Below are positions 4,371-36,345 of a DNA stretch of 64,000 nt, one piece after another (position 1 is the stretch's first letter; the number at the start of each line of letters is the position of its first letter). Below the pieces are notes generated by a model that was given only the letters and a program-made list of their open reading frames with translations, was not told where the DNA came from and searched no databases. The DNA lies in the NCBI GenBank assembly GCA_963773065.1, contig CAVYZN010000032.1, positions 128,001 through 192,000 of the forward strand. Direction: 5' to 3'. The position numbers were made by a program, and so were the translations under genes. This DNA is from an uncultured Gammaproteobacteria bacterium (GTDB taxonomy: Bacteria > Pseudomonadota > Gammaproteobacteria > UBA9214).

Positions 4371-4533
4371 GGCTTGTAGTGATGGTTCAACGTTTGGTTT
4401 GAGTCATCGGAATGCCGCCGCCGGCATAATCATGGGCGCGGCGACGGCGTTTCAGCGGCATCAGGATTATTTCCGCCACTGGTTTACCACGTTATTTCAT
4501 GGTTACCGGTTGGTATATTGTCCTTTGGTACGT

Positions 4534-4635
4534 GACGTGCAGGGACGCACTAATGCCGCGGGCGCAAGGATGCGCGGGAGCGGTGACGTGCAGGGACGCA
4601 CTAATGCCGCGGGCGCAGGGATGCGCGGGAGCAGC
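4534..4635 (+). repeat. Two tandem copies of a 51-bp REP/MITE-like unit (GACGTGCAGGGACGCACTAATGCCGCGGGCGCA...GGAGCGG)
   Basis: Direct 51-bp periodicity; same family at 14612, 14918 and about 36065. Confidence 0.85.
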
Positions 4636-4681
4636 GCGGCTGGTGTCAGATAAGGCATGCCTGCTGCTACACTGGCGCGCC

Positions 4682-6112
4682 ATGACCCCCGACACCCGCT
4701 ACCCCGGCCTTGCCCGCAGACCGCTGCCGCGCTTTCCCGGCTGGTGGGCGGCGCTGGGGCCGGGCATCGTGTGGATGGCGCTCGCCCAGGGCAGCGGCGA
4801 GCTGATCTGGTGGCCCTATATGATCGCCAAATACGGGCTCGCCTTCCTGTTCCTGCTCATCCCCGCCTGCCTGCTGCAGTATCCCCTCAATCTGGAGATC
4901 GGCCGCTACACCCTGCTCACCGGCGAGAGCGTTTTCCACGGCTTCTTCCGCCTGAGCCGTACGCTGGGCGTGATTTTGTGGCTGCTGATGACGCTGTCGT
5001 TCCTGTGGTTCGGCGCCTTCGCCTCCGCGGGCGGCACGGCGCTCGCCGCGCTCACGCATTTCCCCGCCGGCTGGAGCCCGCGCGCGCAGACCCTGTTCTG
5101 GGGCTATGCATCGATCGCCGTGTTCGTGCTCGCGGTGCTGTTCTCCGGCGTGGTCTACACGCTGGTGGAACGCTTCATGAAGGGCGTGGCGATCATCACC
5201 GTCGCGGGACTGCTGTGGGCCTGCCTGCAGCCGCAGGTGCTGGAGGCGACGCCCGCGTTCCTGCAGGGCCTGCTGGGTCCGCCGGGCGCCATGCCGCGTC
5301 CCTGGGACCCGGCGGACGCCACCAAGCTGCTCACCGCCATCACCTTCGCGGGCCTGGGCGGCTTCTGGATCCTGTTCTATTCCTACTGGCTGCGCGACAA
5401 GGGCGCGGGCATGGCGGCGCACATCGGGAGGATCACCGGACCCATCGTGGGCAAGCCCGAGGCGGTGACGGCGGACGGCTACCTGCCCGAGGACACTCCC
5501 GCGGCGCGCGCCGAATGGCGGCGCTGGAACCGCTATCTCGGCGTGGACGCGTTCATCGGCGTGGGCGGCAACCTGCTGACCACGCTGCTCACCTGCCTGC
5601 TCGCCTATGCGCTGCTCTTCCCGCAGGGCCTGCTGCCGCAGGACTATGAGCTTGCCGTGGTGCAGAGCCGCTTCTTCGAGGTGAGCTGGGGCGAGGCGGG
5701 GCGCATCCTGTTCCTGCTGGTGGCGGCGGCCTTCCTCACCGACACCTGGCTTGCCACCGCGGATGCGGTGAGCCGCATGCAGGCCGACATCGTGCAGATC
5801 GTGTTTCCGCGCGCGCGGCGCCTGGCGCAGCGCCAGTGGTACTATGTATTCTTCGCGCTGCTGACCGTCGTCACCTGCCTCACCATGTTGCTGGACGCGC
5901 CCGGTCCGCTGATCCTGACCAGCGCCGTGATCGGCTTCGCGGGCACGGTGATCTTCCCGGCAGCGCTGTACCTGTTGAATCATCGCCGCCTGGCGCCGGC
6001 GCTGCCGGCCTGGGCGCGCCCGGCGCCCGGCACGCGCTGGCTGCTGGGGATCGCCTTCCTGGCCTATCTGCTGCTGGCCATCGCATATCTCTACGTAACG
6101 CTGCGCGGCTGA
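4682..6112 (+). CDS. NRAMP-like / APC-superfamily membrane transporter
   Basis: LGPGIVWMALAQGSGELIWWP, EIGRYTLLTGES; many TM segments; start placed at ATG 4682 after the repeats. Confidence 0.75.
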   Translation: MTPDTRYPGLARRPLPRFPGWWAALGPGIVWMALAQGSGELIWWPYMIAKYGLAFLFLLIPACLLQYPLNLEIGRYTLLTGESVFHGFFRLSRTLGVILWLLMTLSFLWFGAFASAGGTALAALTHFPAGWSPRAQTLFWGYASIAVFVLAVLFSGVVYTLVERFMKGVAIITVAGLLWACLQPQVLEATPAFLQGLLGPPGAMPRPWDPADATKLLTAITFAGLGGFWILFYSYWLRDKGAGMAAHIGRITGPIVGKPEAVTADGYLPEDTPAARAEWRRWNRYLGVDAFIGVGGNLLTTLLTCLLAYALLFPQGLLPQDYELAVVQSRFFEVSWGEAGRILFLLVAAAFLTDTWLATADAVSRMQADIVQIVFPRARRLAQRQWYYVFFALLTVVTCLTMLLDAPGPLILTSAVIGFAGTVIFPAALYLLNHRRLAPALPAWARPAPGTRWLLGIAFLAYLLLAIAYLYVTLRG

Positions 6113-6145
6113 CCGGCGCCGCGGCCATGGACCGCAGACATGTGA
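5329..6145 (+). repeat. Copy 1 of an ~815-bp direct duplication (copy 2 at 8172-8990)
   Basis: Constant offset of 2843 through the CDS; about 15 substitutions counted by eye, mostly synonymous. Confidence 0.92.
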
Positions 6146-6256
6146 TAGGTAGGGTGCCGTTTCACCAGCGCGGAGGGGTATGAGATTCCCAGGCCGGCAA
6201 GTCGTTCTTCATATGTCGAGGTGGCGGCGTAGGGTGGCACAATAAATCTGTCACCT

Positions 6257-6472
6257 TTATTGCGGGTACACCCGGTCGGCGAGCGCGCCGTAGAAGCGTT
6301 CGCACAACCGGTGGCGTACTTCCTGTTGCGACAATCCGGGCGGGAAGGAGGCAAGCGCCAGCGTGCGCGCGGTTTCGAACAGGCTCGCGCCCATGGCGAT
6401 GCGTTCAGCGCCGGTGAGCGCGCGGTAGCGCTTACGCAGGTAGCGCTCGACTTTCGGGGTGGTGTCACGCAT
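6257..6472 (-). CDS. Small helical protein coupled to the nucleotidyltransferase (putative TA partner)
   Basis: 71-aa ORF whose start overlaps the upstream stop. Confidence 0.65.
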   Translation of the reverse strand: MRDTTPKVERYLRKRYRALTGAERIAMGASLFETARTLALASFPPGLSQQEVRHRLCERFYGALADRVYPQ

Positions 6473-7010
6473 GCCGGCATTTCTCCATTAACGCCGCCAC
6501 GCCGAGGCGCGCGGCCCACTCACGCAAATATTCATCATCCGCTCCCGAGGCGAGCAGGTTGCGCACGTCACGCAGTTGCAGTTCCGACGCGGAATCCTTG
6601 GCCCAGACAAGCTTGGAAAGAATCAGGTCCTCCTTGGCTGCGATCCAGGTGCGAAAACCCGGAAGCTCGACCGACCGGCGGCGGGCGAACTCGACCCGGC
6701 GGTAAGCCTCGTCCTTGCGAACGATGACATCCACTTTAACCACGCTCTCGATATGAACCAGATTGAACATGCCTTGTAACCGGATCGCCTGTTCCAGATC
6801 GGGTGGTACGTAGTAGTCGGACTCGAACAGCGCCTGCAATCGCGGTGCATCGGCGGGATCGATCGCGACGACAAGATCGATGTCACGCGTCATGCGCGGC
6901 TCGGCGTAGTAGTTCATGGCCACCGACCCGGTCAACATGTATTCGATGCTCGCCCTTTCCAGCCTGCCGCCGACGTCCTGCAACACCTCCAGCTCAGTCA
7001 GCATTTCCAT
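6465..7010 (-). CDS. Nucleotidyltransferase-fold protein (putative TA component)
   Basis: MLTGSVAMNYYAEPRMTRDIDLVV gives a GS...DxD motif; EDLILSKL...DVRNLL C-terminus. Confidence 0.8.
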   Translation of the reverse strand: MEMLTELEVLQDVGGRLERASIEYMLTGSVAMNYYAEPRMTRDIDLVVAIDPADAPRLQALFESDYYVPPDLEQAIRLQGMFNLVHIESVVKVDVIVRKDEAYRRVEFARRRSVELPGFRTWIAAKEDLILSKLVWAKDSASELQLRDVRNLLASGADDEYLREWAARLGVAALMEKCRHA

Positions 7011-7120
7011 GAGTTGCCATTTGTATCGTATTATTCTTTGGCGAAAATCGCGTAGCGTTTTTTTTTCATCTGGAATTGCCTGTTGCGTGGTGTAACTTTA
7101 CATGCTCACAAAAAACATCG

Positions 7121-7462
7121 CTAAACATCATCTACATAAAGACGTTTTCCATATGAAAATCCGCTCAGCTTCCCTTCAGAGATCATTCGTTCTATATCCT
7201 CAATTGTTAAATCCCTAGAATCGGCGTACGATTCTACGAGAACCGGATTGGTTAAATATTGTGATGCTTTCCGTAAACCAAGCATATCCGCCGGAACAAG
7301 GATCCAATTGAATCCACCTACGAATGCACCATATAGCAAGATCTTTACAAAGCCAAATGTGCGCATGCTACTTGCTTCTGAATGTAATGAGTCGGCAATA
7401 ACTGCAAACAGTGAAAATGCGACAATTGTATCGACAACAAGCCGGCAGGGTGGTATCTGCAA
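7121..7462 (-). CDS. AT-rich hypothetical membrane protein
   Basis: 113-aa ORF in a low-GC stretch with hydrophobic segments; no family recognised. Confidence 0.4.
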   Translation of the reverse strand: MQIPPCRLVVDTIVAFSLFAVIADSLHSEASSMRTFGFVKILLYGAFVGGFNWILVPADMLGLRKASQYLTNPVLVESYADSRDLTIEDIERMISEGKLSGFSYGKRLYVDDV

Positions 7463-7512
7463 GGGCTGATGCAGGCTGGGGAGCGCAAGAGCGTGGAGCC
7501 GATGGCGGCGCG

Positions 7513-8074
7513 AGTAAAGGAAGAATAAACGCCCTTTTCCCCCAAGTCCACGGGTAGTTCACAGGCAACACGCAGCCATTCGCCCTCTCGCTGTCCACGA
7601 AATCGGTCGGAATTTTACCACTGCCGGGGAAATCATTCCCTTTCCTTCTCTCCCTTCCCTCAATCTCTGGCCGATTCCGGCCAGCAGGCAAACCGATACC
7701 CTACCACTTCTGCAAAGTCGTCAACTCGAGTTGAATAGTCGGTTTTTTAGGTTCAGTCTAACAGGCCCACTTGCCTGCTTGTGCGTTGCATGCTGACCGG
7801 CGGCGGCGCACGGCTTTGGGGTAATGGCATCGATTCTGTTGCGGCGGCTTTTTCGTTCAGGTGGGTAAGTATTTTCTTGAGGGCCTGCCCCACGAAGTGC
7901 TTTGGGCATTACCACCGGATCTTCGATGCAGGCAAGAGCCTGCCCCGCGAGCGCAGCGAGTGCTTTGGGCATGATCCTGACCGCGCCACCGCATGCGTGG
8001 CAGGTCTCGATGTCGATGTCGATTAAAGGCCTACTTTTGGTGAACACCCGCTTGAGGCGTTGTGCCGAAGTCAT
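7513..8074 (-). mobile_element. IS91/ISCR-family remnant: 3' end of the transposase plus oriIS
   Basis: MT(S)AQRLKRVF..IDIETCHACGGAVRI..ACIEDPVV C-terminal motif; minus-strand GAAAAGGGCGTTTATTCTTCCTTTAC at 7513-7542 resembles ISCR oriIS ends. Confidence 0.85.
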
Positions 8075-8175
8075 CGAGGCGCGTCGCTTGGCGAGCCGCG
8101 CAGCGCCCCGAGCAGGCCCTTGAGGAGATCGATGGGCGTGGGCGGGCAGCCGGGGATCATCACGTCCACGGGCTC
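8071..8175 (-). pseudogene. C-terminal fragment of a NuoB/HyfI-type Fe-S small subunit
   Basis: PVDVMIPGCPPTPIDLLKGLLGAL matches the conserved PVD..IPGCPP motif; no upstream part present. Confidence 0.7.
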
Positions 8176-8955
8176 ACCGCCATCACCTTCGCGGGCCTGG
8201 GCGGCTTCTGGATCCTGTTCTATTCCTACTGGCTGCGCGACAAGGGCGCGGGCATGGCCTCGCACATCGGGCGCATCACCGGACCCATCGTGGGCAAGCC
8301 CGAGGCGGTGACGGCGGACGGCTACCTGCCCGAGGACACCCCCGCGGCGCGCGCCGAATGGCGGCGCTGGAACCGCTATCTCGGCGTGGACGCGTTCATC
8401 GGCGTGGGCGGCAACCTGCTGACCACGCTGCTCACCTGTCTGCTGGCCTATGCGCTGCTCTTCCCGCAGGGCCTGCTGCCGCAGGACTATGACCTTGCCG
8501 TGGTGCAGAGCCGCTTCTTCGAGGTGAGCTGGGGCGAGGCGGGGCGCATCCTGTTCCTGCTCGTGGCGGCGGCCTTCCTCACCGACACCTGGCTCGCCAC
8601 CGCGGATGCGGTGAGCCGCATGCAGGCCGACATCGTGCAGATCGTGTTTCCGCGCGCGCGGCGCCTGGCGCAGCGCCAGTGGTACTATGTATTCTTCGCG
8701 CTGCTGACCGTCGTCACCTGCCTCACCATGTTGCTGGACGCGCCCGGTCCGCTGATCCTGACCAGCGCCGTGATCGGCTTCGCGGGCACGGTGATCTTCC
8801 CGGCGGCGCTGTACCTGTTGAATCATCGCCGCCTGGCGCCGGCGCTGCCGGCCTGGGCGCGCCCCGCGCGCGGCGCGCGCTGGCTGCTGGGGATCGCCTT
8901 CCTGGCCTATCTGCTGCTGGCCGTCGCATATCTCTACGTAACGCTGCGCGGCTGA
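8172..8955 (+). pseudogene. 5'-truncated second copy of the NRAMP-like transporter
   Basis: Near-identical to 5329-6112; lacks the N-terminal ~215 codons. Confidence 0.9.
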
Positions 8956-9058
8956 CCGGCGCCGCGGCAATGGACCGCGGATATGCGAATAGAAATGGGC
9001 CACATTTTCCGTTGAGATACTAAGGTCCTTCCTTGATATAGCAACTTTGCAGGGGCAC

Positions 9059-9174
9059 GCGGTCCGGGATGGGCTTGCCGGAACACGCCGTGAATGCATC
9101 GCCTGGACGGCTGGGCACCCGAGCCGTACAGGGATGTATTCACGGCGTGTTCCGGCAAGCCCATCCCGGACCGC
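9059..9174. repeat. Long REP-like inverted repeat (37-bp perfect arms)
   Basis: GCGGTCCGGGATGGGCTTGCCGGAACACGCCGTGAAT and its exact reverse complement. Confidence 0.85.
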
Positions 9175-9292
9175 ATGACAGGTGATGGTCTTGAAAACAG
9201 GGGCAAGGAGTTTGTAAGGCAGGGGTATCAAACGTGGTCTGTCCCCGTGGGTTTGTGGTATAAGTCGCACACTTTCCAATGGAGCGACGATC

Positions 9293-10453
9293 TTGAAATC
9301 ACGATACCGGTCGGTGGCATGGTTGCTGGTGGCGGGCGCCCTGGCCGCGGGCTGTGGCAAGCAGGAGAGCGGCACGGCCGCCGGCGAGACGGTCGTCAGG
9401 ATCGGTTCGGTGGCGCCGCTCACCGGTCCGCAGGCCCACCTCGGCAAGGACAATGACAATGGCGCGCGACTGGCGATGGACGATATCAACGCCGCCGGGC
9501 TCACGCTGGGGGGCAAGCAGGCCCGCATCGAACTGATCAGCGAAGACGATCAGGCCGACCCGCGCATCGCGACCATCATCGCGCAGAAATTCGTCGATAA
9601 CGGCGTCGCCGGCGTGATCGGGCATCTCAATTCCGGGGCCACCATACCCGCCTCGAAGATCTACCACGATGCCGGCATACCGCAGATTTCCCCGTCCGCC
9701 ACCGCCATCGCCTATACCGCGCAAGGCTTCGAGACGGCCTTCCGGGTCATGACCAACGACGAGCAACAGGGCAAGGTGCTGGGGCAGTTCGCGGTCAACA
9801 CGCTGGGCGCGAAGCGGATAGCCATCATCGACGATCGCACCGCCTACGGCCAGGGGCTGGCGGATGAATTCGAAAAATCCGCCAGGGCCTCGGGCGCGCA
9901 GATCGTGACGCGGGAATTCACCTCCGACCGTTCCACGGACTTCATGGCGATCCTGACCTCGATCAAGGGCAAGGATCCGCAATTGGTGTTTTACGGCGGC
10001 ATGGACGCGCAGGGCGGGCCGATGGCGAGGCAGATGAAGGAACTGGGGCTCGGCGCGCGGCTGCTGGGCGCCGACGGCATGCAGACCGCCGAGTTCCTCA
10101 AGCTCGCGGGCGCGAATGCGGAAGGGGTGGTGGCCTCATCGCCGGGCTTGTCGCTCTCGGCCATGCCGGAGGGCCAGACGTTCAAGCAAAAATTCAACGC
10201 GCGTTACGGCGAGATCCAGAACTACGCGCCCTATGCCTACGATGCCGTGCAGGTGATGGTCGCGGCGATGCGCCGCGCCGATTCCGCCGATCCGCGGATC
10301 TACCTGCCGGAAATCGCCAGGACCGATTATCAGGGCGTGACCGGCCATATCCGCTTTGACGCCAAGGGCGATGTCGCGGGCGGCTATGTGACACTCTATC
10401 AGGTGAAGAACGGCGCCTGGCAGGTGCTCGAAACCGTCGAGAGCGGGAAGTAG
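9293..10453 (+). CDS. livK: Branched-chain amino acid ABC transporter substrate-binding lipoprotein
   Basis: LAAGC lipobox; EDDQADP, GVIGHLNSG, ISPSAT and YAYDA motifs. Confidence 0.9.
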   Translation: MKSRYRSVAWLLVAGALAAGCGKQESGTAAGETVVRIGSVAPLTGPQAHLGKDNDNGARLAMDDINAAGLTLGGKQARIELISEDDQADPRIATIIAQKFVDNGVAGVIGHLNSGATIPASKIYHDAGIPQISPSATAIAYTAQGFETAFRVMTNDEQQGKVLGQFAVNTLGAKRIAIIDDRTAYGQGLADEFEKSARASGAQIVTREFTSDRSTDFMAILTSIKGKDPQLVFYGGMDAQGGPMARQMKELGLGARLLGADGMQTAEFLKLAGANAEGVVASSPGLSLSAMPEGQTFKQKFNARYGEIQNYAPYAYDAVQVMVAAMRRADSADPRIYLPEIARTDYQGVTGHIRFDAKGDVAGGYVTLYQVKNGAWQVLETVESGK

Positions 10454-10669
10454 CCTATAGCCACGGAAGCACACGGAAGACATCGGACATGATGTTCCAG
10501 CTGACCATCGAATGTCCTAGGATGACTCTGATTGTCCGTGTGCCTTCGACCAGTCGGTCGCAAATGGACGTCATTATAGGAGACTGACACTCCCTTAAGC
10601 AAGCGCCATTACATCCCTCGCCCTGTCTCAGGTAAACTTCCCGCCCTGGCGGTATCGGACAGGTAAGCC

Positions 10670-11599
10670 ATGGAAATCTTCGCGCAGCAGATCATCAACG
10701 GCCTGGTGCTGGGCAGCGTCTACGCGCTGGTCGCGCTCGGCTACACCATGGTGTACGGCATCCTCGAACTCATCAACTTCGCCCACGGCGAGATCACCAT
10801 GATCGGCGCGATGGTGGCCCTGGCGGTGATCGGCGCCCTTGTCGGTGCCGGCGTGGAACTGCCGGGCATCCTCATTGCCGGACTGGGCCTGCTCGCCGCC
10901 ATCCCGGCGTGCATGACGCTCGGTTACTGCATCGAACGCATCGCCTATCGGCCGCTGCGCCGGGCGCCGCGGCTGGCGGCGTTGATCACCGCCATCGGCA
11001 TGTCCATCATCCTGCAGAACGTCGCCATGCTGATCTGGGGACGCCAGTATATTTCCTTTCCGCCGATCCTGCCGCAGGGCCGGCATGTCGTGTTCGGCGC
11101 GACCATCTCCGATGTGCAGATCGTGATATTGACCACCGCGACGGTGCTGATGTTCGCCCTGGTGCTGCTGGTGAGCAAAACCCGGCTCGGCCGCGCCATG
11201 CGCGCCACCGCGCAGGCGCCGCAGATCGCGGGGCTGATGGGCGTGAACGTCGATACGATCATTTCGCTGACCTTCGTCATCGGTTCGGCGCTGGCCGCGG
11301 TGGCGGGCGTGATGGTCAGCGCCTATTATGGCCTGGCGCATTACTACATGGGTTTCCTGCTGGGACTGAAGGCGTTCTCCGCCGCGGTGCTGGGCGGCAT
11401 CGGCAACCTCGCCGGCGCGATGCTCGGCGGTCTGCTGCTCGGCGTGATCGAGAGTCTGGGCGCCGGTTATATCGGCGATCTCACCGGCGGCTTTCTCGGC
11501 AGTCACTATCAGGATGTGTTCGCGTTCTTTGTCCTGATACTGGTGCTGGTGCTGCGGCCATCGGGTCTGCTCGGGGAACGTGTCGCTGAACGCGCCTGA
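10670..11599 (+). CDS. livH: Branched-chain amino acid ABC permease
   Basis: QQIINGLVLGSVYALVALGYTMVYG...NFAHGE. Confidence 0.95.
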   Translation: MEIFAQQIINGLVLGSVYALVALGYTMVYGILELINFAHGEITMIGAMVALAVIGALVGAGVELPGILIAGLGLLAAIPACMTLGYCIERIAYRPLRRAPRLAALITAIGMSIILQNVAMLIWGRQYISFPPILPQGRHVVFGATISDVQIVILTTATVLMFALVLLVSKTRLGRAMRATAQAPQIAGLMGVNVDTIISLTFVIGSALAAVAGVMVSAYYGLAHYYMGFLLGLKAFSAAVLGGIGNLAGAMLGGLLLGVIESLGAGYIGDLTGGFLGSHYQDVFAFFVLILVLVLRPSGLLGERVAERA

Positions 11600-12707
11600 C
11601 GCCCTTTCCAGGACCCGCCGGCGCAACGCCTGGCTGGGCTACCTGCTGTTGTGCCTGCTGCTGGCCGCGCTGCCGTTTATCGCCGATGCCGGACTGGGCC
11701 GCTCCTGGGTGCGCGTGCTGGATTACACGCTGCTCTACATCATGCTCTCCCTCGGCCTTAACATCGTGGTCGGCTACGCCGGCCTGCTCGATCTCGGTTA
11801 CATCGCCTTCTACGCCGTCGGCGCCTATCTCTACGCCCTGCTCGCCTCGCCGCACTTCGGTCTGCATCTGCCGTTCTGGCTGCTGCTGCCTCTGGGCGCC
11901 ATGACGGCCGCGCTGTTCGGCGTATTGCTCGGCACCCCGACCCTGCGGCTGCGCGGCGATTATCTCGCCATCGTCACCCTCGGCTTCGGCGAGATCATCC
12001 GTATCTTTCTCAACAACCTCAACGCGCCGGTCAACATCACCAATGGCCCCCAGGGCGTGAATCTCATCGATCCGATCGCCTTCGGGGGTTTTTCCCTGGG
12101 CAAGACCCACATCCTGTTCGGCGTCACGTTCAGCGCCGCGCATCAATATTACTACCTGTTCCTGCTGCTGGCGCTGGCGGTGATCTTCATTTCACTGCGC
12201 CTGCAGGACTCGCGCATCGGCCGCGCCTGGGTGGCGATACGCGAGGATGAAGTGGCGGCCGAGGCCGTGGGCGTCAACACGCGCAACATCAAACTGCTCG
12301 CCTTCGCCATGGGCGCGACCTTCGGGGGCGTGGCCGGCGGACTGTTTGCCGGCTTTCAGGGTTTCATCAGTCCCGAGAGCTTCAATCTCATGGAGTCGGT
12401 CATGATCCTGTGCATGATCGTATTGGGCGGCATGGGCAGCATCCCGGGCGTGATTTTCGGCGCGGTGCTGCTCACGGTGCTCCCCGAGTCGCTGCGCTAT
12501 ATCGGCGATCTGCAGCGCGCCACGCTGGGACGCATCGTGGTCGACCCTTCCGATCTGCGCATGCTGCTCTTCGGTCTCGCGCTGCTGGCGGTCATGCTCT
12601 ATCGCCCCGCCGGCCTGCTGCCCTCGGGGCTGCGCCGGCGCGAGCTGGCGGCGGAGGACGGCGTCGCCGAGCAGGAACAGGCCTCGGTGTACGATGCCCG
12701 GCGCTAG
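11580..12707 (+). CDS. livM: Branched-chain amino acid ABC permease
   Basis: GLNIVVGYAGLLDLGY, LRLRGDYLAIVTLGFGEI. Confidence 0.95.
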   Translation: MSLNAPDALSRTRRRNAWLGYLLLCLLLAALPFIADAGLGRSWVRVLDYTLLYIMLSLGLNIVVGYAGLLDLGYIAFYAVGAYLYALLASPHFGLHLPFWLLLPLGAMTAALFGVLLGTPTLRLRGDYLAIVTLGFGEIIRIFLNNLNAPVNITNGPQGVNLIDPIAFGGFSLGKTHILFGVTFSAAHQYYYLFLLLALAVIFISLRLQDSRIGRAWVAIREDEVAAEAVGVNTRNIKLLAFAMGATFGGVAGGLFAGFQGFISPESFNLMESVMILCMIVLGGMGSIPGVIFGAVLLTVLPESLRYIGDLQRATLGRIVVDPSDLRMLLFGLALLAVMLYRPAGLLPSGLRRRELAAEDGVAEQEQASVYDARR

Positions 12708-13489
12708 CCCGGCAACCGGCGGACCCTTGCTGTCGGTTGCCGCTGTGGGCAAGCGCTTCGGCGGCATCACCGCGCTGGATGGCGTTACGCTGTCCGTGCA
12801 GCATGGCGAAATCTACGGCCTGATAGGCCCCAACGGCGCCGGCAAGACCACCTTGTTCAATGTGTTCACCGGGCTGTACACGCCGAGCGCCGGCGCCGTC
12901 AGCTTTGCCGGTCATCCGCTGCGCGGCCTGAAACCGCATCAGGTCCTCGGCCTGGGTCTCGCGCGCACCTTCCAGAACATCCGCCTGTTCGCCAACATGA
13001 CCGCGCTTGGAGAATGTCATGGTTGGCCGCCATGCGCGCACCCATGCCGGCGTCTTGGGCGCCATTATCCGCGGTGCGCGCACGCGCGCGGAAGAGGCCG
13101 CGATCAAGGCGCGCGCCGGCGAACTGCTGGATCAGGTCGGCATCCGCGGGCAGCGCCGCACGCTGGCGAAAAATCTTTCCTACGGCGATCAGCGCCGCTT
13201 GGAGATCGCGCGCGCCCTGGCGAGCGAACCGCTGGCGCTGGCGCTGGATGAACCCGCCGCCGGCATGAATTCCGTCGAGCGTCAGGAGCTGACGCGTCTG
13301 ATCCGCCGCCTGCGCGATGAACTCCGGCTCACCATCCTGCTGATCGAACACGATGTGAAACTGGTGATGGGTTTGTGCGACCGTATCGCCGTGCTGGATT
13401 TTGGCGCGAAGATCGCCGAGGGCGCGCCGCGCGACGTGCAGAGCGATCCCCGCGTCATCGCCGCCTATCTCGGGAGCGAACCGGCGTGA
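12694..13489 (+). CDS. livG: Branched-chain amino acid ABC ATPase (one frameshift near 13008)
   Basis: GPNGAGKTT, ARTFQNIRLF, LSYGDQRRLEIARAL. Confidence 0.9.
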
Positions 13490-14199
13490 ACCAGCTGGAG
13501 GTGCGCAATCTGTCGGTCGCCTACGGCAACATACACGCGGTGCGCGAGGTGAGCATGGAATTGCGCGAAGGCGAGCAGGTCTGTCTCATCGGGGCCAACG
13601 GCGCGGGCAAGACCACCTTGCTCAAGGCCATCGCCGGCATGTTGCCGCCCGCGAGAGGCACGGTATATTTCCAGGGCATCGCGCTGACTGGCAAGCCATC
13701 CCATGAAATCGTGAGACTGGGCATCGCCCTGGCGCCGGAGGGCCGCGGCATTTTCGGCCGGCTTACCGTGGCGGAAAATCTCGCCATGGGCGCCTACATA
13801 CGTCGTGATTACGCGTCGATGCGCAGCGACACCCACATGGTGTTCGACCTGTTTCCGCGCCTCGCCGAACGCAAGGCCCAGCCCGCCGGTCTGCTCTCCG
13901 GCGGCGAACAGCAGATGCTCGCCATCGGCCGCGCCTTGATGAGCCGCCCGCGATTGCTGTTGCTGGATGAACCCAGCATGGGGCTCGCCCCGCTGCTGGT
14001 GCAAAAGATCTTCGACACCATCGGCCACATCGCCGCGCGCGGCGTCACCATGATCCTGGTCGAACAGAATGCCCGCCTCGCGCTTAAGGCGTGCAGCCGC
14101 GGTTATGTCATGGAAAGCGGCAAAATCACGCTGAGTGACAGCGCGCGGAATCTGATCGAGAGTCCGAAGGTGCGCCACGCCTATCTCGGCGAGGCCTAG
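13486..14199 (+). CDS. livF: Branched-chain amino acid ABC ATPase
   Basis: GANGAGKTT, LSGGEQQMLAIGRALM, LDEPSMGLAP; GTG start overlaps the livG stop. Confidence 0.93.
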   Translation: MNQLEVRNLSVAYGNIHAVREVSMELREGEQVCLIGANGAGKTTLLKAIAGMLPPARGTVYFQGIALTGKPSHEIVRLGIALAPEGRGIFGRLTVAENLAMGAYIRRDYASMRSDTHMVFDLFPRLAERKAQPAGLLSGGEQQMLAIGRALMSRPRLLLLDEPSMGLAPLLVQKIFDTIGHIAARGVTMILVEQNARLALKACSRGYVMESGKITLSDSARNLIESPKVRHAYLGEA

Positions 14200-14349
14200 C
14201 CCGCCTATCACCGGGCAGGCCCGTTCGAGTGCGCAACGATTTCAGGGCAACGCGTGATGGACTTAAGCATCCAGGGCAGGGCAAGCCGGACGGCATCATC
14301 CAGGCGGCGCCTCGCCATCCCGCCTCTTGGCGTCAACGCTCACCCAGTC

Positions 14350-16167
14350 AGAATGCCGAGAGCGCCGCGCTGCTGGTGGAGGCGCGTGTTCCCCAACAGC
14401 CGGTGCGCCAATGGGTATTGAGCTTTCCGTATTCCTTGCGTTTACTGTTCGCCAGCCGCTCGGGCGTGATGGGTCAGTTGCTGGGCATCGTCTACCATGT
14501 CATCGCCACGCACCTGATCAAGAAAGCCGGGTTTACCCGCAAGACGGCCCGCATCGGCGCGGTGACCTTGATCCAACGCTTCGGTAGCGCGCTGAATCTC
14601 AACATCCACTTGATGTGCATGGACGCACGAATGCCGCGGGCGCAGGGATGCGCAGGAGCGGCCCACATGCTCTTTCTGGATGGCGTCTACATCAATGGTG
14701 TCAATGGAACCTGCCAGCCGGTTTCAGTGGGTCAAGGCGCCGACCAACACCGATCTCACCCGGCTGGCCCTACACCATCGCCCGGCGCGTCGGTCGTTTG
14801 CTGGAACGGCAGGGATTGCTGGAACGCTATATCGACGACACGCGATGTGGACGACAGCTATCTGGCCGGAGAGGCTGTGGATGCGGGGCCGTTGGATCAG
14901 CTACTGGCTCACTCGATGATGTGCAGGGACGCACGAATGCCGCGAAGCGCATGGATGCGAGAGAGCGGCCACGTACCGCATCGCCGTAGGCGCCAGCCAA
15001 GGCCGCAAGGTGTTCGCCTAAAGCGCCTACTGTTGGCACCCTGCAGACCCTGCCCGCGTGCGACCCGGAGGATCAATTTGCGGACACGGTGGGCAAGGTG
15101 GCCGGCTTCTCGCTCCATGCCGAGGTGGCGGCGAGGGCGGATGAACGCCAGAAGCTGGAACGGTTTGGCTGGCACTGTGTCAGGGCGCAGCTTTCAGTGT
15201 AATGGGGCTATCCACCAGCGACGTACTGTCGCTGAACCTGCTCAGCCTCCAGCGGCCAATCCTTCCAGCTGCGATGACGAGGCTACATTGCCAGGCCGGC
15301 GGTATCGGAAAAGCGCCTGTCGCTCACTGCGAATGGTAACGTGCGGTACCAACTCAAGACGCCGTACCGCGAAAGCTTGCCCCGCGAGCGCAGCGAGTGC
15401 TTTGGGCATGGCACGACGCACGCCATCTTTGAGCCGCTGGATTTTGTCGCGCGGCTCGCTGCACTGGTGCCGAAGCCCCGGGTCAACCTGACGCGTTTCC
15501 ATGGCGTGTTTGCGCCGAACAGCCGGCACCGTGCGCGGGTGACGCCGAGCGGGAGGGGCAAGGGAAGCCGGCGTCCCTGGCAGGGGGATTCGGACGACGA
15601 GCAAACGCCCGCCGAACGCCGGGCATCGATGACCTGCACCCAAAGGGCATAAAGGCGCAGCGCCTGAAACGCGTATTTGGTATCGATATCGAGACTTGCC
15701 GGATCTGCGGCGGGTCGGTCAGGATCATGCCCAAAGCACTCGCTACGCTCGCGGGGCAGGCTCTCGCAGGGACGCACGAGGTAGGGCGACGCAGGATGCC
15801 GAAGCCGAGAGGAGCCGGCGGTGATGCCCAAATCACTTCGTGGGGCAGGCTCTCAAGAAGATCCTCAGCCACCTCGATGAGAAAGGCGCCTCGGCGGAAG
15901 CCTCACCGATGCCACCGTGCCGGGCGCCGCCACAGGCGGTCTTGTTCGACTGATACAGGCACCCGGGGGACAACCCGCGTCTGCGAGATCGAGCGACGCG
16001 GCAGGGAGGCGGCCGGTCTGAGGGTCAGAACATGTCCGAAAAGCTCACTGACGTGCGACGGGGATTCAGGCGGAAATCATGTTGAGGGGCAGATCGACGG
16101 CCGCCGGTGACGCTGATGACCGACGGATGGTTACTCGATCTGAGGAAAAGTTGGTTTATATCTTCTA
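14350..16167 (+). mobile_element. IS91/ISCR-family element, 5'-truncated transposase pseudogene with oriIS
   Basis: AESAALLV, PVRQWVLSFP, GAVTLIQRFGSALNLNIH.H, FEPLDFVARLAALVPKPRVNLTRFHGVFAPNS; oriIS-like GAAAAGTTGGTTTATATCTTCTA at 16143-16167; many small insertions. Confidence 0.9.
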
Positions 16168-17640
16168 AAGCGCCGCCGCAATTTCCATAAAGCTGTTCAA
16201 TCCAGCCTCAAGGTTTTCAATGATCTCCCCCGCCAGCTCATCCGGCTCCGGCAGGTTGTCTAGATCGGCCAGGCTTTTATCCTTGAGCCAGAAGATATCC
16301 AGACTGGTTTTATCCCGCGCTATGATTTGCTCGTAGCTGAATTTGCGCCAGCGTCCTTCCGGGTTGCTTTGCTCTCCCCATAGCTCTTTACGCTCATGGC
16401 GATTGAGCGGGTTATAGTAGGCAATGAATTCCTGTAAATCCTCGAAGCGTAGCGGTTTCTTTTTCAGGGTGTTGTGAATGTTGGTGCGGTAGTCGTAGTA
16501 CCAGACTTCCTTTGTCCACGGCTCTTTACTGGCTGCGCGGTTATCGAAGAACAGCACATTCGCCTTTACGCCGTTGGCGTAGAAGATGCCGGTGGGCAAG
16601 CGCAGGATGGTGTGCAGGTCGGTAGTTTCCAGCAACTTCTTGCGCACCGATTCACCCGCGCCGCCTTCAAACAGCACATTGTCCGGCACCACCACCGCCG
16701 CGCGTCCGGTGGTTTTCAGCATGGTGCGGATGTGCTGCACGAAGTTGAGCTGTTTGTTGGAAGTGGTCGCCCAGAAATCCTGCCGGTTGTAGGTCAGGTC
16801 GTCCTTCTCCTGTTCGCCTTCCTCATTGGTGAAACTCATCGCGCTCTTCTTGCCGAACGGCGGATTCGCCAGCACGTAGTCGAAGCGTTTTCCGCTATCG
16901 GCCATCAGCGCATCGTTAGGCGACACCATGCTCTCGCCGTCGATCTCGCCGATATTGTGCAAGAACATATTCATCAAAGCGAGGCGGCGGGTGCCTGCGA
17001 CAATCTCATTGCCGTAAAATGTCTCGTGCTTGAGAAACGCTTTCTGTTTCTTGTCCATCTGATGCGCCGCCACCAGAAAATCATACGCCGCCAAAAAGAA
17101 CCCGCCCGTACCGCAGGCCGGATCGGCAATGGTCTTGCTGGGTTCCGGACGCACGCATTCCACCATTGCTTTAATCAGCGCACGCGGCGTGAAGTATTGC
17201 CCCGCGCCGGATTTCGTATCCTCGGCATTGCGCTCCAGCAAACCTTCGTAGATGTCGCCCTTCACATCCGCGCCCATCGTCACCCATTGCGTTTCATTCA
17301 CCATGTCGATCAGGCGATACAGCTTGGCGGGATCCTGAATCTTGTTCTGCGACTTGGTGAAAATCTGTCCCAGCATCCCCGGCTTGTTGCCCAGCTCGCG
17401 CAGCAGCGTCATGTAGTGCACTTCCAACTCCGCGCCGCGCTTTGGCTTGAGACTTTGCCAGTTGTATTCCGCAGGAATGCCGACCTTGCGGTTGTAAGGC
17501 GGCTGGCTGTATTCATCCGCCATTTTCAGGAAGATCAAATAAGTGAGCTGCTCCAGATAGTCGCCATAGCTCACGCCATCATCTTTAAGGACAGTGCAGA
17601 AACTCCAGACCTTGGAAACGATGGATGCGGTTGCGTTCAT
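16165..17640 (-). CDS. hsdM: Type I restriction-modification N6-adenine methyltransferase
   Basis: GAGQYFTPR, DPACGTGGF and NPPF motifs; intact 491-aa ORF. Confidence 0.95.
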   Translation of the reverse strand: MNATASIVSKVWSFCTVLKDDGVSYGDYLEQLTYLIFLKMADEYSQPPYNRKVGIPAEYNWQSLKPKRGAELEVHYMTLLRELGNKPGMLGQIFTKSQNKIQDPAKLYRLIDMVNETQWVTMGADVKGDIYEGLLERNAEDTKSGAGQYFTPRALIKAMVECVRPEPSKTIADPACGTGGFFLAAYDFLVAAHQMDKKQKAFLKHETFYGNEIVAGTRRLALMNMFLHNIGEIDGESMVSPNDALMADSGKRFDYVLANPPFGKKSAMSFTNEEGEQEKDDLTYNRQDFWATTSNKQLNFVQHIRTMLKTTGRAAVVVPDNVLFEGGAGESVRKKLLETTDLHTILRLPTGIFYANGVKANVLFFDNRAASKEPWTKEVWYYDYRTNIHNTLKKKPLRFEDLQEFIAYYNPLNRHERKELWGEQSNPEGRWRKFSYEQIIARDKTSLDIFWLKDKSLADLDNLPEPDELAGEIIENLEAGLNSFMEIAAAL

Positions 17641-17662
17641 GTATTAACCTCGAAAATAATTT

Positions 17663-17729
17663 GTCATTCCCGTGAAAGCGGGAATCCAGTTTTTTAACTC
17701 ACTGGATGCCGGATCAAGTCCGGCATGAT
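17663..17729. repeat. REP-type hairpin pair GTCATTCCCGTGAAAGCGGGAATCCAG / CTGGATGCCGGATCAAGTCCGGCATGA
   Basis: Two palindromic units in inverted arrangement between fic and hsdM. Confidence 0.75.
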
Positions 17730-17812
17730 GGGTTTCTGCAATCGGTCAGCAGGCTGCTGACCGATTCGGCACTTAACTTATTACCCTCTTTATTACCCTT
17801 ACTAAAGGGTAA

Positions 17813-18859
17813 TTACCCTTTCTTTTTCCAACGTGCCGCAGGCCCACGGCCTTGGCATTCGATGACATTTGCGTTTTGCTGTTCTCTCAAGACCCGCCGC
17901 ACCATGTCTTTGCTCACACCGGGGCATGCCTGCTCCACCTGCGAAACGGTGAATTCACCCACGAATCGGTTGATGGCCGCCAACACCAAATCCGTCTTCG
18001 AGCCACGTGGCGCTCTCACCTCGCCCACGCGCTCGGCAAACTCGCGATATGCCAACTTCAGAATGGACAACACGTAGTTGATGTAAGGCCAAGGATCATG
18101 CTTGCCCTCATGCCATCCCTGCGAACTCTGCTCCAGCGTCTCGTAATAGCGATCCTTATTTTCCTCGATCAATCGCTCAAGGCTGATGTAGCGCCCCACC
18201 TCATTACCCAACTGATAGCACTGAAGTAGCAGCGCCAACCGGGACACACGCCCGTTGCCATCGCGGAAAGGATGAATGCACAGAAAATCCAGATTGAATG
18301 CCGCCATCGCAATGAGCGGATGAATCCAGCGCTCATCCAGGCAATGTTGCCAATCGGCAACCAGATTCGCCATGGCTGCCGGTGTGCCCGCCGCAGGCAC
18401 CGGGCGGAAACGCACCCGCTCGCGCCCATCCGGGTAGCGTTCGATGATGTCGCCGTCTTTCTCCTTGTACTGCCCCGCATCCCAGATTTGCCCGCGCGCC
18501 AGCCGGTGTAGTTCACGTATCGTCGCCTCGCTCACAGGCATGCGCGTAGCGCCTTCGTGGATGAGCTGCAATGCATCGCGATAACCGCGCACCTCTTCTT
18601 CATCGCGATCCCGGAACAAAGGCTTGGCCGCAACCAGCACATCACGCACCCGTGACGGATCGACCGATACCCCTTCAATCCGGTTGGAAGAAACCGCACT
18701 TTCAATCAGCGCATGTTCCCACAATGTCTTGAGCCGCTGCGGCGATTGCTGTGTATAAAGCGCCTGCTTGCCGCGAAACTCGCCAAGATCGGCGAGATAC
18801 CAGGAGGTGCCGGCGGGAATGGAAAAATCTTTTACGGTGAAAAGGCGCAGGGTGTTCAT
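17813..18859 (-). CDS. Fic-domain protein with C-terminal HTH
   Basis: Canonical HPFRDGNGRVSR motif; SSNRIEG inhibitory-like motif; start overlaps the hsdS stop. Confidence 0.92.
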   Translation of the reverse strand: MNTLRLFTVKDFSIPAGTSWYLADLGEFRGKQALYTQQSPQRLKTLWEHALIESAVSSNRIEGVSVDPSRVRDVLVAAKPLFRDRDEEEVRGYRDALQLIHEGATRMPVSEATIRELHRLARGQIWDAGQYKEKDGDIIERYPDGRERVRFRPVPAAGTPAAMANLVADWQHCLDERWIHPLIAMAAFNLDFLCIHPFRDGNGRVSRLALLLQCYQLGNEVGRYISLERLIEENKDRYYETLEQSSQGWHEGKHDPWPYINYVLSILKLAYREFAERVGEVRAPRGSKTDLVLAAINRFVGEFTVSQVEQACPGVSKDMVRRVLREQQNANVIECQGRGPAARWKKKG

Positions 18860-36026: not shown

Positions 36027-36345
36027 GCATCCATGGATGGATGCAGGTCGCGGTAGGCAGGGACGATGCATAGGGATATGCAAGTGTCGCGGGAGGCAGG
36101 ATGCCGGGAGCGGCGGCCGGGAGCGACCCTTCAACGACGCGATGTGGGTTGTAAGTGTCGGGAGCGATGAGCCGTAAGGGAAGGCCGCTCCGGACATCCT
36201 CGGTAACTGCTCCTGCGTTACCCTACCTCCTGCATCCCTGCAGTCGTGTCCTCACGCGGCACTCGTACATCCATGTACATCGTAGGCACGGTCGTTCTCG
36301 CACTTCCGTGTGCTTCGCGACACTCGGACCTTCTGTCCATCGCCG
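36027..36345. repeat. Cluster of nested ~45-55 bp REP/MITE-like units
   Basis: GATGCATAGGGATATGCAAGTGTCGCGGGAGGCAGGATGCCGGGAGCGGC at 36065-36114 plus reverse-strand relatives at 36184-36281 and 36291-36344. Confidence 0.7.

Follow-up and report, generated by a model that had tools for sequence, protein, structure and literature searches.

The HUH enzymes of the Y1 (RAYT) type are the accepted candidate mobilisers of REP-type repeats. PATE derived from IS200/IS605 elements (Y1 HUH) insert precisely, without target duplication, and have hairpin ends, and Rickettsia palindromic elements (RPEs), which are ~100-150 bp long, are known from the housekeeping genes of one genus. A RAYT gene that is bracketed by inverted repeat arms represents the classical REPIN-RAYT layout (Bertels and Rainey). 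Di Nocera et al. 2013 (PMC3733652) describe REP/BIME sequences as palindromic repeats tagged with GTAG/CGTC, which are mostly extragenic, form mosaic clusters and insert inside other palindromes, and which sometimes lie in frame within ORFs, at times near the same site of homologous genes. The same paper cites RPEs as in-frame inserts in protein genes.

Here we analyse a window of 64,000 nt (positions 128,001 to 192,000 of contig CAVYZN010000032.1) from the MAG of an uncultured gammaproteobacterium (GCA_963773065.1; 91% complete, 6.3% estimated contamination), in which a decayed transposase gene of the ISCR/IS91 family is interrupted by a series of short inserts (Table 1). The most likely reading is that REP-like micro-elements have accumulated in transposase genes and are carried by them, with no mechanism that is specific to rolling-circle elements.

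The pseudogene matches residues ~101-492 of intact homologs (residues 104-491 in tblastn against the intact protein). Its first ~100 codons are gone, including the N-terminal zinc-binding domain (PF14319), and its reading frame is disrupted many times; the ORF list contains fragments in three frames and no intact ORF. A 29-aa piece encoded at 15284-15372 scores 22.8 bits against Y2_Tnp (Pfam PF04986, cut-off 20.9), and the search of the whole genome with this domain gave 54.4 bits at C32:143284-143523. All nine ISCR loci in this genome are broken remnants, and none is full length. Inserted DNA makes up about a quarter of the window gene, and intact homologs (494-498 aa) are free of the inserts. 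A preliminary description of this DNA had overlooked the missing first ~100 codons as well as small frameshifts at 14709-14712 and 14770. The 3' tail is presumably the oriIS end of the element; part of it (15994-16165) recurs with 93.6% identity at contig C2:12692-12863. On its right side the tail ends at 16165, directly against the stop codon of hsdM. No resistance gene lies beside the window gene. Four genomes of the same genus contain no orthologous ISCR copy; the neighbouring gene is 75-79% identical in them, and synteny stops at the repeat.

Table 1. Coordinates of the ISCR-related features and repeat units in the window
Feature	Position	Strand	Evidence or remark
Tandem pair of 51-nt A-type units, apparently intergenic	4537..4638	+	Flank reading
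Second ISCR remnant, C-terminal piece	7801..8092	-	Contains B (7938-7972), B' (7875-7909) and a C-like unit
ISCR/IS91-family transposase pseudogene	14340..15953	+	tblastn, protein-to-DNA alignment, Pfam Y2_Tnp
A-type unit, 51 nt, in frame	14612..14662	+	Interrupts the motif NIHF/HML; three-hairpin, REP-like
16-nt insert, between LLER and RD	14825..14840	not assigned	Protein-to-DNA alignment; no family found
A-type unit, 52 nt, frameshifting	14918..14969	+	Between LLAHS and ITYR
C unit, 22 nt, non-palindromic	15015..15036	-	Reverse complement CCAACAGTAGGCGCTTTAGGCG
117-nt insert, between KLER and YIARP	15167..15283	not assigned	tblastn, protein-to-DNA alignment
B unit, 36 nt, in frame, between PYR and GTTH	15373..15408	+	Protein-to-DNA alignment
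D insert, 17 nt, frameshifting, between MTW and AQR	15637..15653	not assigned	Protein-to-DNA alignment
B unit, 36 nt, between V(R/K)I and IACI	15728..15763	-	Protein-to-DNA alignment
GTAG-type unit ("A3"), 43 nt	15766..15808	+	Comparison with the C7 and C6 remnants
B' insert, 28 nt, between PxV and IKxIL	15825..15852	-	B unit lacking 8 nt internally
3' non-coding tail of the ISCR element	15954..16165	+	Similarity to the C2 copy stops at 16165
Mosaic array: GGGA-loop hairpin, GTAG unit and others, REP-like	36057..36290	-	Several kinds of unit in one array

The inserts were placed by frameshift-tolerant protein-to-DNA alignment against the intact proteins P0096 (ISVsa3-type) and P0017, together with tblastn. 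The alignment to intact IS91/ISCR transposases fixed the boundaries and bore out the eight inserts listed in the preliminary description, seven of which agree with our placement to 0-3 nt; the seventh on that list starts at 15766, as given there, and ends at 15808, not 15805. The list was incomplete in that it lacked the 117-nt and the 16-nt insert. Neither of these matches a family, and no other copy of the 117-nt insert was found in this genome or among the fetched loci. In blastn comparisons of the region with 54 same-family genomes, alignments ended exactly at the insert borders, with break points at query positions 272/324, 578/631, 698, 824/943, 1030/1071, 1297 and 1389. No target duplication was seen at any insert junction that was compared with empty homologs, and inserts of 51, 36 and 36 nt preserve the frame; both observations had been made before and are upheld here. 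Among the unit lengths, 51, 48, 36 and 45 are multiples of three and 22, 17 and those of a 70-73-nt family are not, a division for which the families are too few to be interpreted. Most of the inserts had also been called hairpin-rich, a term that is correct for the 51/52-nt and 43-nt units, applies only weakly to the 36-nt units and does not describe those of 22 and 17 nt. The flanking ABC-transporter and hsdM genes contain no unit of the tested library, in agreement with the earlier remark that no inserts were seen in neighbouring housekeeping genes. An artefact of assembly or binning of the MAG might be suspected from its estimated contamination and from the all-A and all-C 16-mers that are among the commonest in the genome, and its probability is nevertheless negligible, as identical inserts are present at identical sites in independent assemblies (G070, G003, G021, named public MAGs and isolates).

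The two inserts of 51-52 nt in the window gene share a 28-nt block (96%) and a 24-nt block (83%), and the discrete families of tiny elements without target duplication that had been proposed are indeed found as unit families in this and other genomes. A unit library, built only from arrays outside ISCR, marks 73 unit loci in the genome, with modest copy numbers of ~23 A-type and ~24 GTAG-type units. The 23 A-type copies have a common three-hairpin fold, in which 22-23 of 23 sequences are paired at all nine consensus pairs, and compensatory pairs are seen at five positions (CG 6/GC 15; UA 17/CG 5; AU 17/GC 6; AU 5/GC 16; UA 12/CG 10). The tandem pair of A units at 4537-4638 was labelled as coding by the greedy ORF map, a label that we judge unreliable for arrays. 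The 48-nt unit, of which the genome contains 22 further copies with 83-94% identity, has the tag GTAG before its hairpin and occurs with the stem variants GGTAAC/GTTACC and GGCAAT/ATTGCC; GTAG is also present inside C and is missing from the A and B units. The 43-nt unit of the window gene is a 48-nt unit that has lost its 5' end through a 14-nt deletion, which includes the ACI codons, and the remnants C7 and C6 contain units of 48 and 47 nt at this site, between IACI and EDP. In our reading, both the A (51-52 nt) and the GTAG (47-48 nt) units are hairpin modules of a REP-like kind that belong to this genome itself. The units nest in the loops and stems of other units, giving rise to mosaic arrays, and they also occur at one fixed spot of an 80-bp REPIN-like repeat (TTCACCGCAAAGACGC...).

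Transposase genes of the DDE type provide a filled and an empty site. Copy C11 (611 aa) matches copy C5 (595 aa) at 1935 of 1959 nt (98.8%) and differs from it by a precise 48-nt in-frame unit without target duplication, which we read as a clean and recent insertion into a non-HUH gene. The corresponding 16-aa unit is found in DDE ORFs of 611 and 614 aa and is missing from paralogs of 595 and 597 aa. Where C11 has its insert, the divergent paralog C27 contains another stem variant, which counts against gene conversion there, and the paralog C28 is empty.

The 36-nt B unit differs in its distribution from the hairpin modules. It has a stem of only 5 bp and is not a real palindrome, and the two 36-nt inserts of the window gene are inverted copies with 42-nt arms that are 93% complementary. 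The B pattern, with at most three mismatches, matches five times in this genome (G000), and all five matches lie inside ISCR copies. Matches were found in 3 of 60 relatives, one to three in each, and all five loci fetched from them have ISCR protein matches. Of 83 sites in other genomes, at least 13 lie in ISCR; the other 70 were not flagged, and a few of them resemble ISCR C-termini by eye. These sites are mostly extragenic (27 of 83 in open frames of at least 450 nt, versus 241 of 293 control positions). Outside this genome B is a repeat of many Gammaproteobacteria, and it often forms the centre of a ~270-bp TIR element. This distribution, inside ISCR here and widespread outside ISCR elsewhere, agrees with the earlier suggestion that ISCR serves as a vehicle. 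A search with B and its flanks against 72,556 plasmid records gave no match, and an Rfam scan of twelve B-containing loci gave none at E <= 0.01. The flanks have GA at the 5' side in five sites, in a chosen parse that is ambiguous by 1-2 nt, and TA at one site outside ISCR.

All three B sites of the window gene are shared with other ISCR copies. The site at 15373-15408, including an AAGCTT variant, recurs in the loci L017, L048, L087 and L032. The site at 15728-15763 is also filled in the C28, C32b and C7 remnants and in L002, L021 and L071, and it contains an in-frame B in the proteins P0001 and P0017. At the B' site (15825-15852), L130 and L003/L073 contain the full 36-nt B, and the 28-nt form is common to the window gene and the second remnant in the window. 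Among 120 ISCR proteins scanned, five have an in-frame B, including the full-length P0017 (507 aa, both Pfam domains), in which it reads PKALAALAGQAL. B thus appears to be tolerated in frame by at least one apparently intact transposase. That intact homologs might carry the inserts as normal sequence had been raised in the preliminary description as a point against its model, and this is the case in part, as P0017 and three shorter ORFs are among the in-frame B carriers.

C and D are likewise not real palindromes, and the term REP is applied to B, C and D by analogy. Of the seven C copies in this genome, four lie in ISCR remnants and the other three within GTAG units or the REPIN-like repeat; in other genomes, C occupies different ISCR sites. 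We considered C as the scar of a larger element left by its joined ends and rejected this, since all copies have both halves adjacent and separated halves were not found. The D insert has only one further copy, in the ISCR remnant of contig C7, where it occupies the corresponding site.

The identical positions of B (three sites) and D (one site) in ISCR copies of several genomes, the intact P0017 ORF with its B and the lack of B and D copies outside ISCR in this genome would all be expected if the inserts were lineage-specific sequence of ISCR subfamilies, each from one ancient insertion that was spread by descent and gene conversion and is no longer mobile. We find this improbable, because each family is present at several sites and in both orientations, A, GTAG and C are found outside ISCR here and B outside ISCR elsewhere, and the insert is missing from 13 of 15 aligned and 115 of 120 scanned homologs. 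The recent insertion in the DDE pair and the different stem variants of C27 and C11 at one site also speak against it. The site of the A unit at 14612-14662 is filled in G070 (L130) by an insert that is identical at 49 of 51 positions in a surrounding alignment of 78%. Inserts that divergent copies share, at ISCR residues 189, 452 and 461 and at the DDE site, call for either repeated site-specific insertion or gene conversion when they are more conserved than their flanks, as this one is, and this weighs against our own reading.

The preliminary description had proposed that hairpin micro-elements, mobilised by HUH enzymes, preferentially enter the single-stranded rolling-circle intermediates of ISCR, which would act as their sink; the insert load would then be specific to HUH elements. 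The absence of target duplications from all inserts is compatible with this, and so is the unit coverage of the ISCR remnants, 211 of 5168 nt (4.1%), compared with 2616 of 653274 nt of non-coding DNA (0.40%) and 1178 of 3181361 nt of coding DNA (0.037%) elsewhere. This ~10-fold ratio is based on few independent events and on a non-coding map that is a crude greedy-ORF estimate and leaves out the library arrays, which when counted narrow it to ~5-fold; ISCR remnants hold roughly 5-10 times the unit DNA of average non-coding DNA. An enrichment is seen relative to average non-coding DNA but is not supported as a property specific to HUH elements: DDE transposase ORFs carry the units too, and the copies of the 80-bp REPIN-like repeat are, by our estimate, colonised about as densely.

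Over ~35 ISCR copies from many genomes we counted at least seven insert families and ~24 site-by-family events; the aligner over-extends in weak loci, so singleton "inserts" were ignored and only clustered families were counted, and L002/L078 and L003/L073, the same loci fetched twice, were each counted once. About 9-10 of the ~24 events fall in ISCR residues 428-461, at the end nearest the presumed oriIS, which would fit a single-stranded sink, but this clustering is confounded: many of the remnants comprise a C-terminal piece, and some loci had been retrieved with the B pattern itself. Had the units always entered one fixed displaced strand, a single orientation would be expected, whereas A, B and C are found in both relative to the ISCR gene (4:2, 3:2 and about 4:1). 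Together with the units in DDE genes and the nesting of units in each other, these orientations make the single-stranded sink very unlikely.

The C-terminal insert cluster sits in an imperfect palindrome, and several sites lie in or beside it, as might be expected if repair or replication had copied patches of REP arrays into the gene, by template switching or as filler DNA at palindromes. The 117-nt and 16-nt inserts without a family and an A-to-T change that adjoins the 48-nt insert in C11 would also fit. The fold of the palindrome is weak, however (z = -1.74; 9 of 200 shuffles at least as good), and random copying would vary the ends, whereas the units have constant ends at unrelated sites (51, 48, 36 and 22 nt), so that copying of patches is highly improbable. 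Other insert sites, such as ISCR residue 189, are unpaired, and a preference of the inserts for hairpins is no more than a hint. The A and GTAG units have no common flank, and no conserved 4-5-nt target was found next to the inserts.

The search for Y1_Tnp genes in the genome gave ten matches, two of them at one locus and hence nine gene loci, one of which has a unit within 2.5 kb. In the family, 1 of 30 Y1 loci has a unit within 1.5 kb. A transposase flanked by the same hairpins, as the preliminary description had suggested looking for, was not seen, as none of the nine genome loci or 30 family loci is bracketed by units. Among 487 ORFs beside B in 80 loci, a phmmer search for Y1/RAYT gave one weak match (3.9e-05). 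None of these searches ties an enzyme to the units A-D. The MAG is 91% complete, and an enzyme gene may therefore be missing from it. At locus L173 of a relative, inverted arms of the 80-bp repeat (TTCACCGC...AGACGC) that is abundant in this genome flank a RAYT-like gene on both sides. The HUH link made in the preliminary description is supported in part, in that the hairpin families resemble REP-type repeats, whose candidate mobilisers are Y1 (RAYT) enzymes. The units are not typical MITEs, with no target duplication and no terminal inverted repeats matching a transposase end. The only Rfam matches for window positions 4000-17000 were miRNA-like, three in number and below threshold, and lay on a palindrome at 9062-9171.

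In our preferred reading, an old and dead ISCR gene (IS91-family, HUH-type) would have gathered insertions of several very small non-autonomous repeat families. The A and GTAG modules would move as precise units without target duplication, probably by a Y1/RAYT-type enzyme acting on single-stranded hairpins, and would favour other repeats, palindromic DNA and dispensable DNA, nesting into BIME-like mosaics. B at its three sites was most likely gained by ISCR lineages in other hosts and arrived as a passenger of ISCR, as probably did the 17-nt D insert. The window copy would owe its high load to age, to neutrality and to a small number of preferred target sites. A bolder reading, which we put forward tentatively and consider rather unlikely, sets the units A-D, with their relatives, apart from REP/REPIN as a layer of duplication-free modules that are ultra-small (17-52 nt) and selective in their sites. 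These would strike repeatedly at the same nucleotides of HUH and DDE transposase genes, nest in each other and in REPINs and travel as IS passengers between genomes, and would thus be hyperparasites of transposons. The 36-nt B, with its 21-nt conserved loop, its non-palindromic sequence and its presence in several phyla, would then have a mobilising enzyme or RNA of its own.

Little is understood of how REPs move and select their targets, since a filled site can seldom be compared with its empty counterpart. In conserved transposase genes the exact "before" sequence is at hand, and the present data contain dozens of nucleotide-precise junctions, one recent filled/empty pair and three cases in which divergent gene copies were struck at the same nucleotide. 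Target choice, unit boundaries and the missing target duplication thereby become directly testable. The sequences further indicate that tiny repeats can ride between genomes in insertion sequences, and that apparently intact transposases can retain them in frame. In annotation work, the unit inserts explain the fragmented look of many ISCR/IS91 genes in environmental Gammaproteobacteria. The window gene is an instructive case and not a special one, as its insert families also turn up in further repeats and in transposase genes of a different kind.

Compared with known systems, the window gene resembles ISCR2/ISVsa3-type elements in its Y2_Tnp domain and in its DNA, which is ~69-70% identical to plasmid copies over the alignable half only, and differs from them in being truncated, frameshifted and laden with inserts to about a quarter of its length. 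The units share with REP/BIME, as portrayed in PMC3733652, short GC-rich hairpins, compensatory stem variation, one GTAG-tagged family and a mostly extragenic, mosaic, palindrome-nested and occasionally in-frame placement. However, the mobile unit here is 48-52 nt long with two or three hairpins, whereas a REP is a single palindrome of 20-40 nt or an inverted doublet. Moreover, A lacks GTAG, B, C and D are non-palindromic, no flanking RAYT was found and the documented targets are transposase genes. The L173 locus has the REPIN-RAYT layout around its RAYT-like gene, but this layout concerns the 80-bp repeat; the A-D units insert into the REPIN-like repeat and are not REPINs themselves. Like PATE, the units insert precisely and without target duplication and have hairpin ends, but no conserved 4-5-nt target was found beside them, and they are far shorter than a two-ended PATE and mixed in orientation. 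Finally, they resemble RPEs as in-frame repeats in ORFs that stay open (P0017 with its B, the DDE transposases with their 48-nt unit), but they are only 17-52 nt long, their carriers are mobile-element genes and several families occur together.

Between an ABC-transporter ATPase gene and hsdM, a type I methylase gene identified by Pfam, lies a stretch without a long open reading frame. A DNA search matched it to thousands of plasmid IS91-family (ISCR-type) transposase genes at approximately 70% identity, covering only 51% of the query in three pieces. With an intact protein from a plasmid record (L001) as the TBLASTN reference, residues 104-491 aligned to window positions 14355-15932 across all three frames, the DNA side showing large gaps. 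Protein-to-DNA alignments allowing frameshifts and long DNA insertions agreed for both of the intact references used, showing small frameshifts and ten inserts that make up approximately 418 of the 1614 nt, or one quarter of the gene (Table). No target duplication was found at the junctions of these ten. All eight inserts of the preliminary description are real; seven agree with its ends to within 0-3 nt, while the one placed at approximately 15766-15805 starts there and ends 3 nt later. Beyond these eight there are inserts of 117 nt and 16 nt, and the insert load is somewhat larger than was reported. Among 54 genomes from the same taxonomic family, a BLASTN search with the region detected ISCR remnants in 30, with alignment breaks at the exact insert borders, which is independent evidence that the inserts are foreign to the gene. 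The 51-nt insert splits the H-hydrophobic-H stretch of NIHFHML, which we take to be the HUH motif of the IS91 family.

Table. Features of the window, and residues at which the insert families interrupt ISCR genes (slash, insertion point)
Feature	Window position	Strand	Context or ISCR residues
Tandem A units	4537-4638
Second ISCR remnant	7801-8092	minus	C-terminal piece
Palindromic repeat, ~110 nt	9062-9171
ABC-transporter ATPase gene	13375-14199		left neighbor of ISCR stretch
ISCR gene	14340-15953	plus
51-nt insert	14612-14662		after NIHF
16-nt insert	14825-14840		LLER/RD
52-nt insert	14918-14969		LLAHS/ITYR
22-nt insert	15015-15036		GRKVF/TLQTL
117-nt insert	15167-15283		KLER/YIARP
36-nt insert	15373-15408		PYR/GTTH
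17-nt insert	15637-15653		MTW/AQR
36-nt insert	15728-15763		VRI/IACI
43-nt insert	15766-15808		IACI/EDP
28-nt insert	15825-15852		PxV/IKxIL
3' non-coding ISCR tail	15994-16165
hsdM, type I methylase gene	16165-17640	minus	right neighbor of ISCR stretch
Methylase and Fic/DOC-family genes	16165-18859
A family			189, 267, 347, 350, 368, 449
B family			235, 355, 452, 458, 461
GTAG unit			243, 456
C family			89, 282, 429/430, 436
D family			428
70-73-nt family			71, 94, 361
45-nt family			186, 437/438

The source genome is a metagenome-assembled genome of 3.84 Mb in 33 contigs (completeness 91%, contamination 6.3%), and its nine ISCR loci are all remnants, none of full length. Its two commonest 16-mers, all-A (380 occurrences) and all-C (174 occurrences), may hint at assembly artefacts. 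Three units lie in the second remnant in the window, namely the 36-nt unit, the 28-nt deletion form of it and a C-like unit of 21 nt, and their sites coincide with those of the main gene or other remnants. A solo copy of the 3' tail, 93.6% identical, is located at C2:12692-12863, and no transposase remnant was detected beside it. The right end of the ISCR element adjoins the methylase gene (N6_Mtase, HsdM_N) and then a Fic/DOC-family gene, which may represent a defence or mobile island.

The inserts belong to several families. The two window copies of the A family (51-52 nt) are related, and all 23 copies of this architecture in the genome share one fold, in which a small hairpin bearing a GGGA-type loop precedes a 5-6-bp stem that surrounds a third hairpin; the stems differ among copies by compensatory changes. 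A units occur in tandem (window positions 4537-4638), directly past terminators and in mosaic arrays. The GTAG unit (approximately 24 copies) is 48 nt long, or 43 nt in the window gene, and combines a small hairpin with a GGGA loop, the GTAG and a 6-bp hairpin that comes in GGTAAC/GTTACC or GGCAAT/ATTGCC variants. B (36 nt) holds a conserved 21-nt loop in a 5-bp stem, and the 28-nt insert is B minus 8 nt. C (22 nt) and D (17 nt) are non-palindromic, and no other copy of the 117-nt insert was found. ISCR genes of other genomes contain further families of 70-73 nt and 45 nt, the loci concerned being L130 (G070:C367), L146 and L085 in relatives. The palindromic repeat in the window (GGGCTTGCCGGAA...TACAGGGACGTATTCACGGCG...) has core 16-mers that are present 15 times genome-wide; Rfam matched it below threshold to miRNA models of plants and animals, and it is probably a GTAG-type REP doublet.

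The preliminary description had proposed tiny mobile units that insert without target duplications, and junctions compared with homologs bear this out, showing none. Four IS4-like DDE transposase paralogs in the source genome align end to end (C11, 611 aa; C5, 595 aa; C27, 614 aa; C28, 597 aa). The C11 and C5 genes are identical at 1935 of 1959 nt (98.8%), and the difference (C11:222900-223200 versus C5:11891-12143, outside the window) is a precise, in-frame 48-nt GTAG unit without target duplication, with one base change alongside. In the divergent paralog on C27 the identical site is occupied by a unit with a different stem variant, and in C28 it is empty. This comparison implies that the units were recently mobile, can enter non-HUH transposase genes and choose their sites. 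GTAG-type units are also present within open frames of 371, 274 and 535 aa (C14:158000-158554, C16:93162-93233), one of which looks by eye like the N-terminal portion of a subunit of a type I restriction enzyme.

About 24 site-by-family events were identified in approximately 35 ISCR copies, several at the same residue in divergent genes. The A insert at residue 189 is shared by the window gene and the relative G070, and is identical at 49 of 51 positions, compared to 371 of 473 (78%) for the whole alignment. B at residue 452 is shared by lineages merely about 71% identical in protein, and the remnant on C6 has an inverted A unit where others have B. Shared sites in divergent copies reflect either strong site selectivity of the units or their spread by short gene conversions. 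At the DDE site common to C27 and C11, the differing stem variants favor repeated insertion. Nine to ten events fall in residues 428-461, overlapping a coding-sequence stretch that forms an imperfect palindrome with a weak fold (z = -1.74), a clustering that is a hint only, as the sample is skewed to C-terminal fragments. Both orientations are represented in families A (4:2), B (3:2) and C (approximately 4:1), which disfavors insertion into one fixed displaced strand.

B behaves as a passenger. Allowing up to three mismatches, its pattern was found in four of 61 genomes (five matches in the source genome, one to three in each of three relatives), and the reversed control pattern in none. All five source-genome matches are inside ISCR remnants, consistent with the earlier idea that ISCR copies are a vehicle for some units, and ISCR protein matches are present in each of the five loci retrieved from the relatives. 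A scan of one genome per species, which needed an exact B core and is uninformative on B conservation, gave at least 117 stretches. Among 83 B sites in 80 fetched loci, at least 13 fall within ISCR genes; 70 lack an ISCR flag, a few of these resembling ISCR C-termini by eye. They are spread over many Gammaproteobacteria orders and a few MAGs that carry the labels Verrucomicrobiaceae, Haliangium and Paracoccaceae. The sites are mostly extragenic, 27 of 83 being in open frames of at least 450 nt versus 241 of 293 control positions. Ten form the center of an element of approximately 270 bp with terminal inverted repeats (TAGGGCCTGTTCACACTAAT...; L025, L026, L030, L034, L038, L041, L042, L065, L076 and L083, from several genera of public Gammaproteobacteria), which has no Rfam match. 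B was absent from 72,556 plasmid records. In a search of 5.8 billion proteins, an in-frame B was present in five of the 120 best ISCR proteins, situated at residue 452/453 or 461; these five include the C28 fragment of the source genome and the full-length homolog P0017 (507 aa, both Pfam domains). B so appears, from these sequences, to have joined ISCR lineages elsewhere, to have come to the source genome within ISCR copies and to be tolerated in frame. That intact homologs might carry the inserts as normal sequence holds in part only, for B in P0017.

The claim that ISCR copies are rich in units was also confirmed. With a library built from non-ISCR arrays only, units cover 211 of 5168 nt (4.1%) in the nine remnants, in six intervals of which some are inherited copies of one event. 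On a greedy-ORF estimate of the coding map, the corresponding values are 2616 of 653,274 nt (0.40%) for non-coding and 1178 of 3,181,361 nt (0.037%) for coding DNA, excluding the library arrays (approximately 1.8 kb), whose inclusion lowers the ratio to about 5-fold. Coverage near 52 DDE transposase matches (60 kb), most of them seemingly young and intact, is 0.39%. The genome is rich in nested mosaics in which units interrupt one another's loops and stems; a GAGAAGT-type tandem hexamer repeat (approximately 80 16-mer counts) adjoins unit arrays, for example at C9:178490. An abundant 80-bp repeat (TTCACCGCAAAGACGCAAAG...CTTTGCGTCTTTGCGGTGAA, 105 arm matches) likewise contains units, at a single fixed position; by estimate it totals approximately 5 kb and has at least five unit insertions, a load similar to that of ISCR. 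In a relative, a 236-aa RAYT-like gene lies between inverted arms of the TTCACCGC..AGACGC repeat (L173, G021:C60:44496-47837, approximately 1100-2110), and since its arms bracket this gene, the 80-bp repeat is probably a REPIN of the L173-type RAYT-like transposase class. The proposed tie to HUH elements and their single-stranded intermediates did not hold, as units occur in DDE transposases, in the REPIN-like repeat and in each other, and in both orientations. We read the enrichment as build-up in old, dispensable, often palindromic repeat DNA rather than a rolling-circle trait.

The units have exact, family-specific lengths, lack target duplications and nest in one another and in other repeats, alongside compensatory hairpin conservation, one recent insertion and passengers moved between genomes. 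As proposed for REPs, mobilisation of the hairpin families may depend on a RAYT-like enzyme of the Y1 HUH type that acts on single-stranded DNA. Y1_Tnp has 10 matches in the source genome and is present in 45 of 54 family genomes; neither the source-genome genes nor those at the 30 family loci examined are flanked on both sides by A-D units.

Passages of Di Nocera et al. 2013 (PMC3733652) describe GTAG/CGTC-tagged REPs, REPs within other palindromes, mosaic clusters, in-frame REPs inside ORFs, including uvrA of Thioalkalivibrio, and differing REPs at about the same recB site in two Xanthomonas species, and cite the Rickettsia RPEs. The palindromic targets, mosaics, in-frame copies and shared sites of these REP/BIME systems match the units found here, as does the tag in the case of the GTAG unit. 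Parts of the existing literature cover REPIN-RAYT systems and insertion sequences that insert into REPs. In full-text search results, no title or abstract dealt with the colonisation of IS91/ISCR or DDE transposase genes by REP-like units, and the supplementary REP-ORF tables of PMC3733652 could include transposases. What is seen here is a variant of known REP/BIME biology, with three features that exceed the descriptions found: the multi-hairpin 48-52-nt and non-palindromic 17-36-nt modules, the repeated striking of identical nucleotides in transposase genes, and the hitch-hiking of units on insertion sequences.
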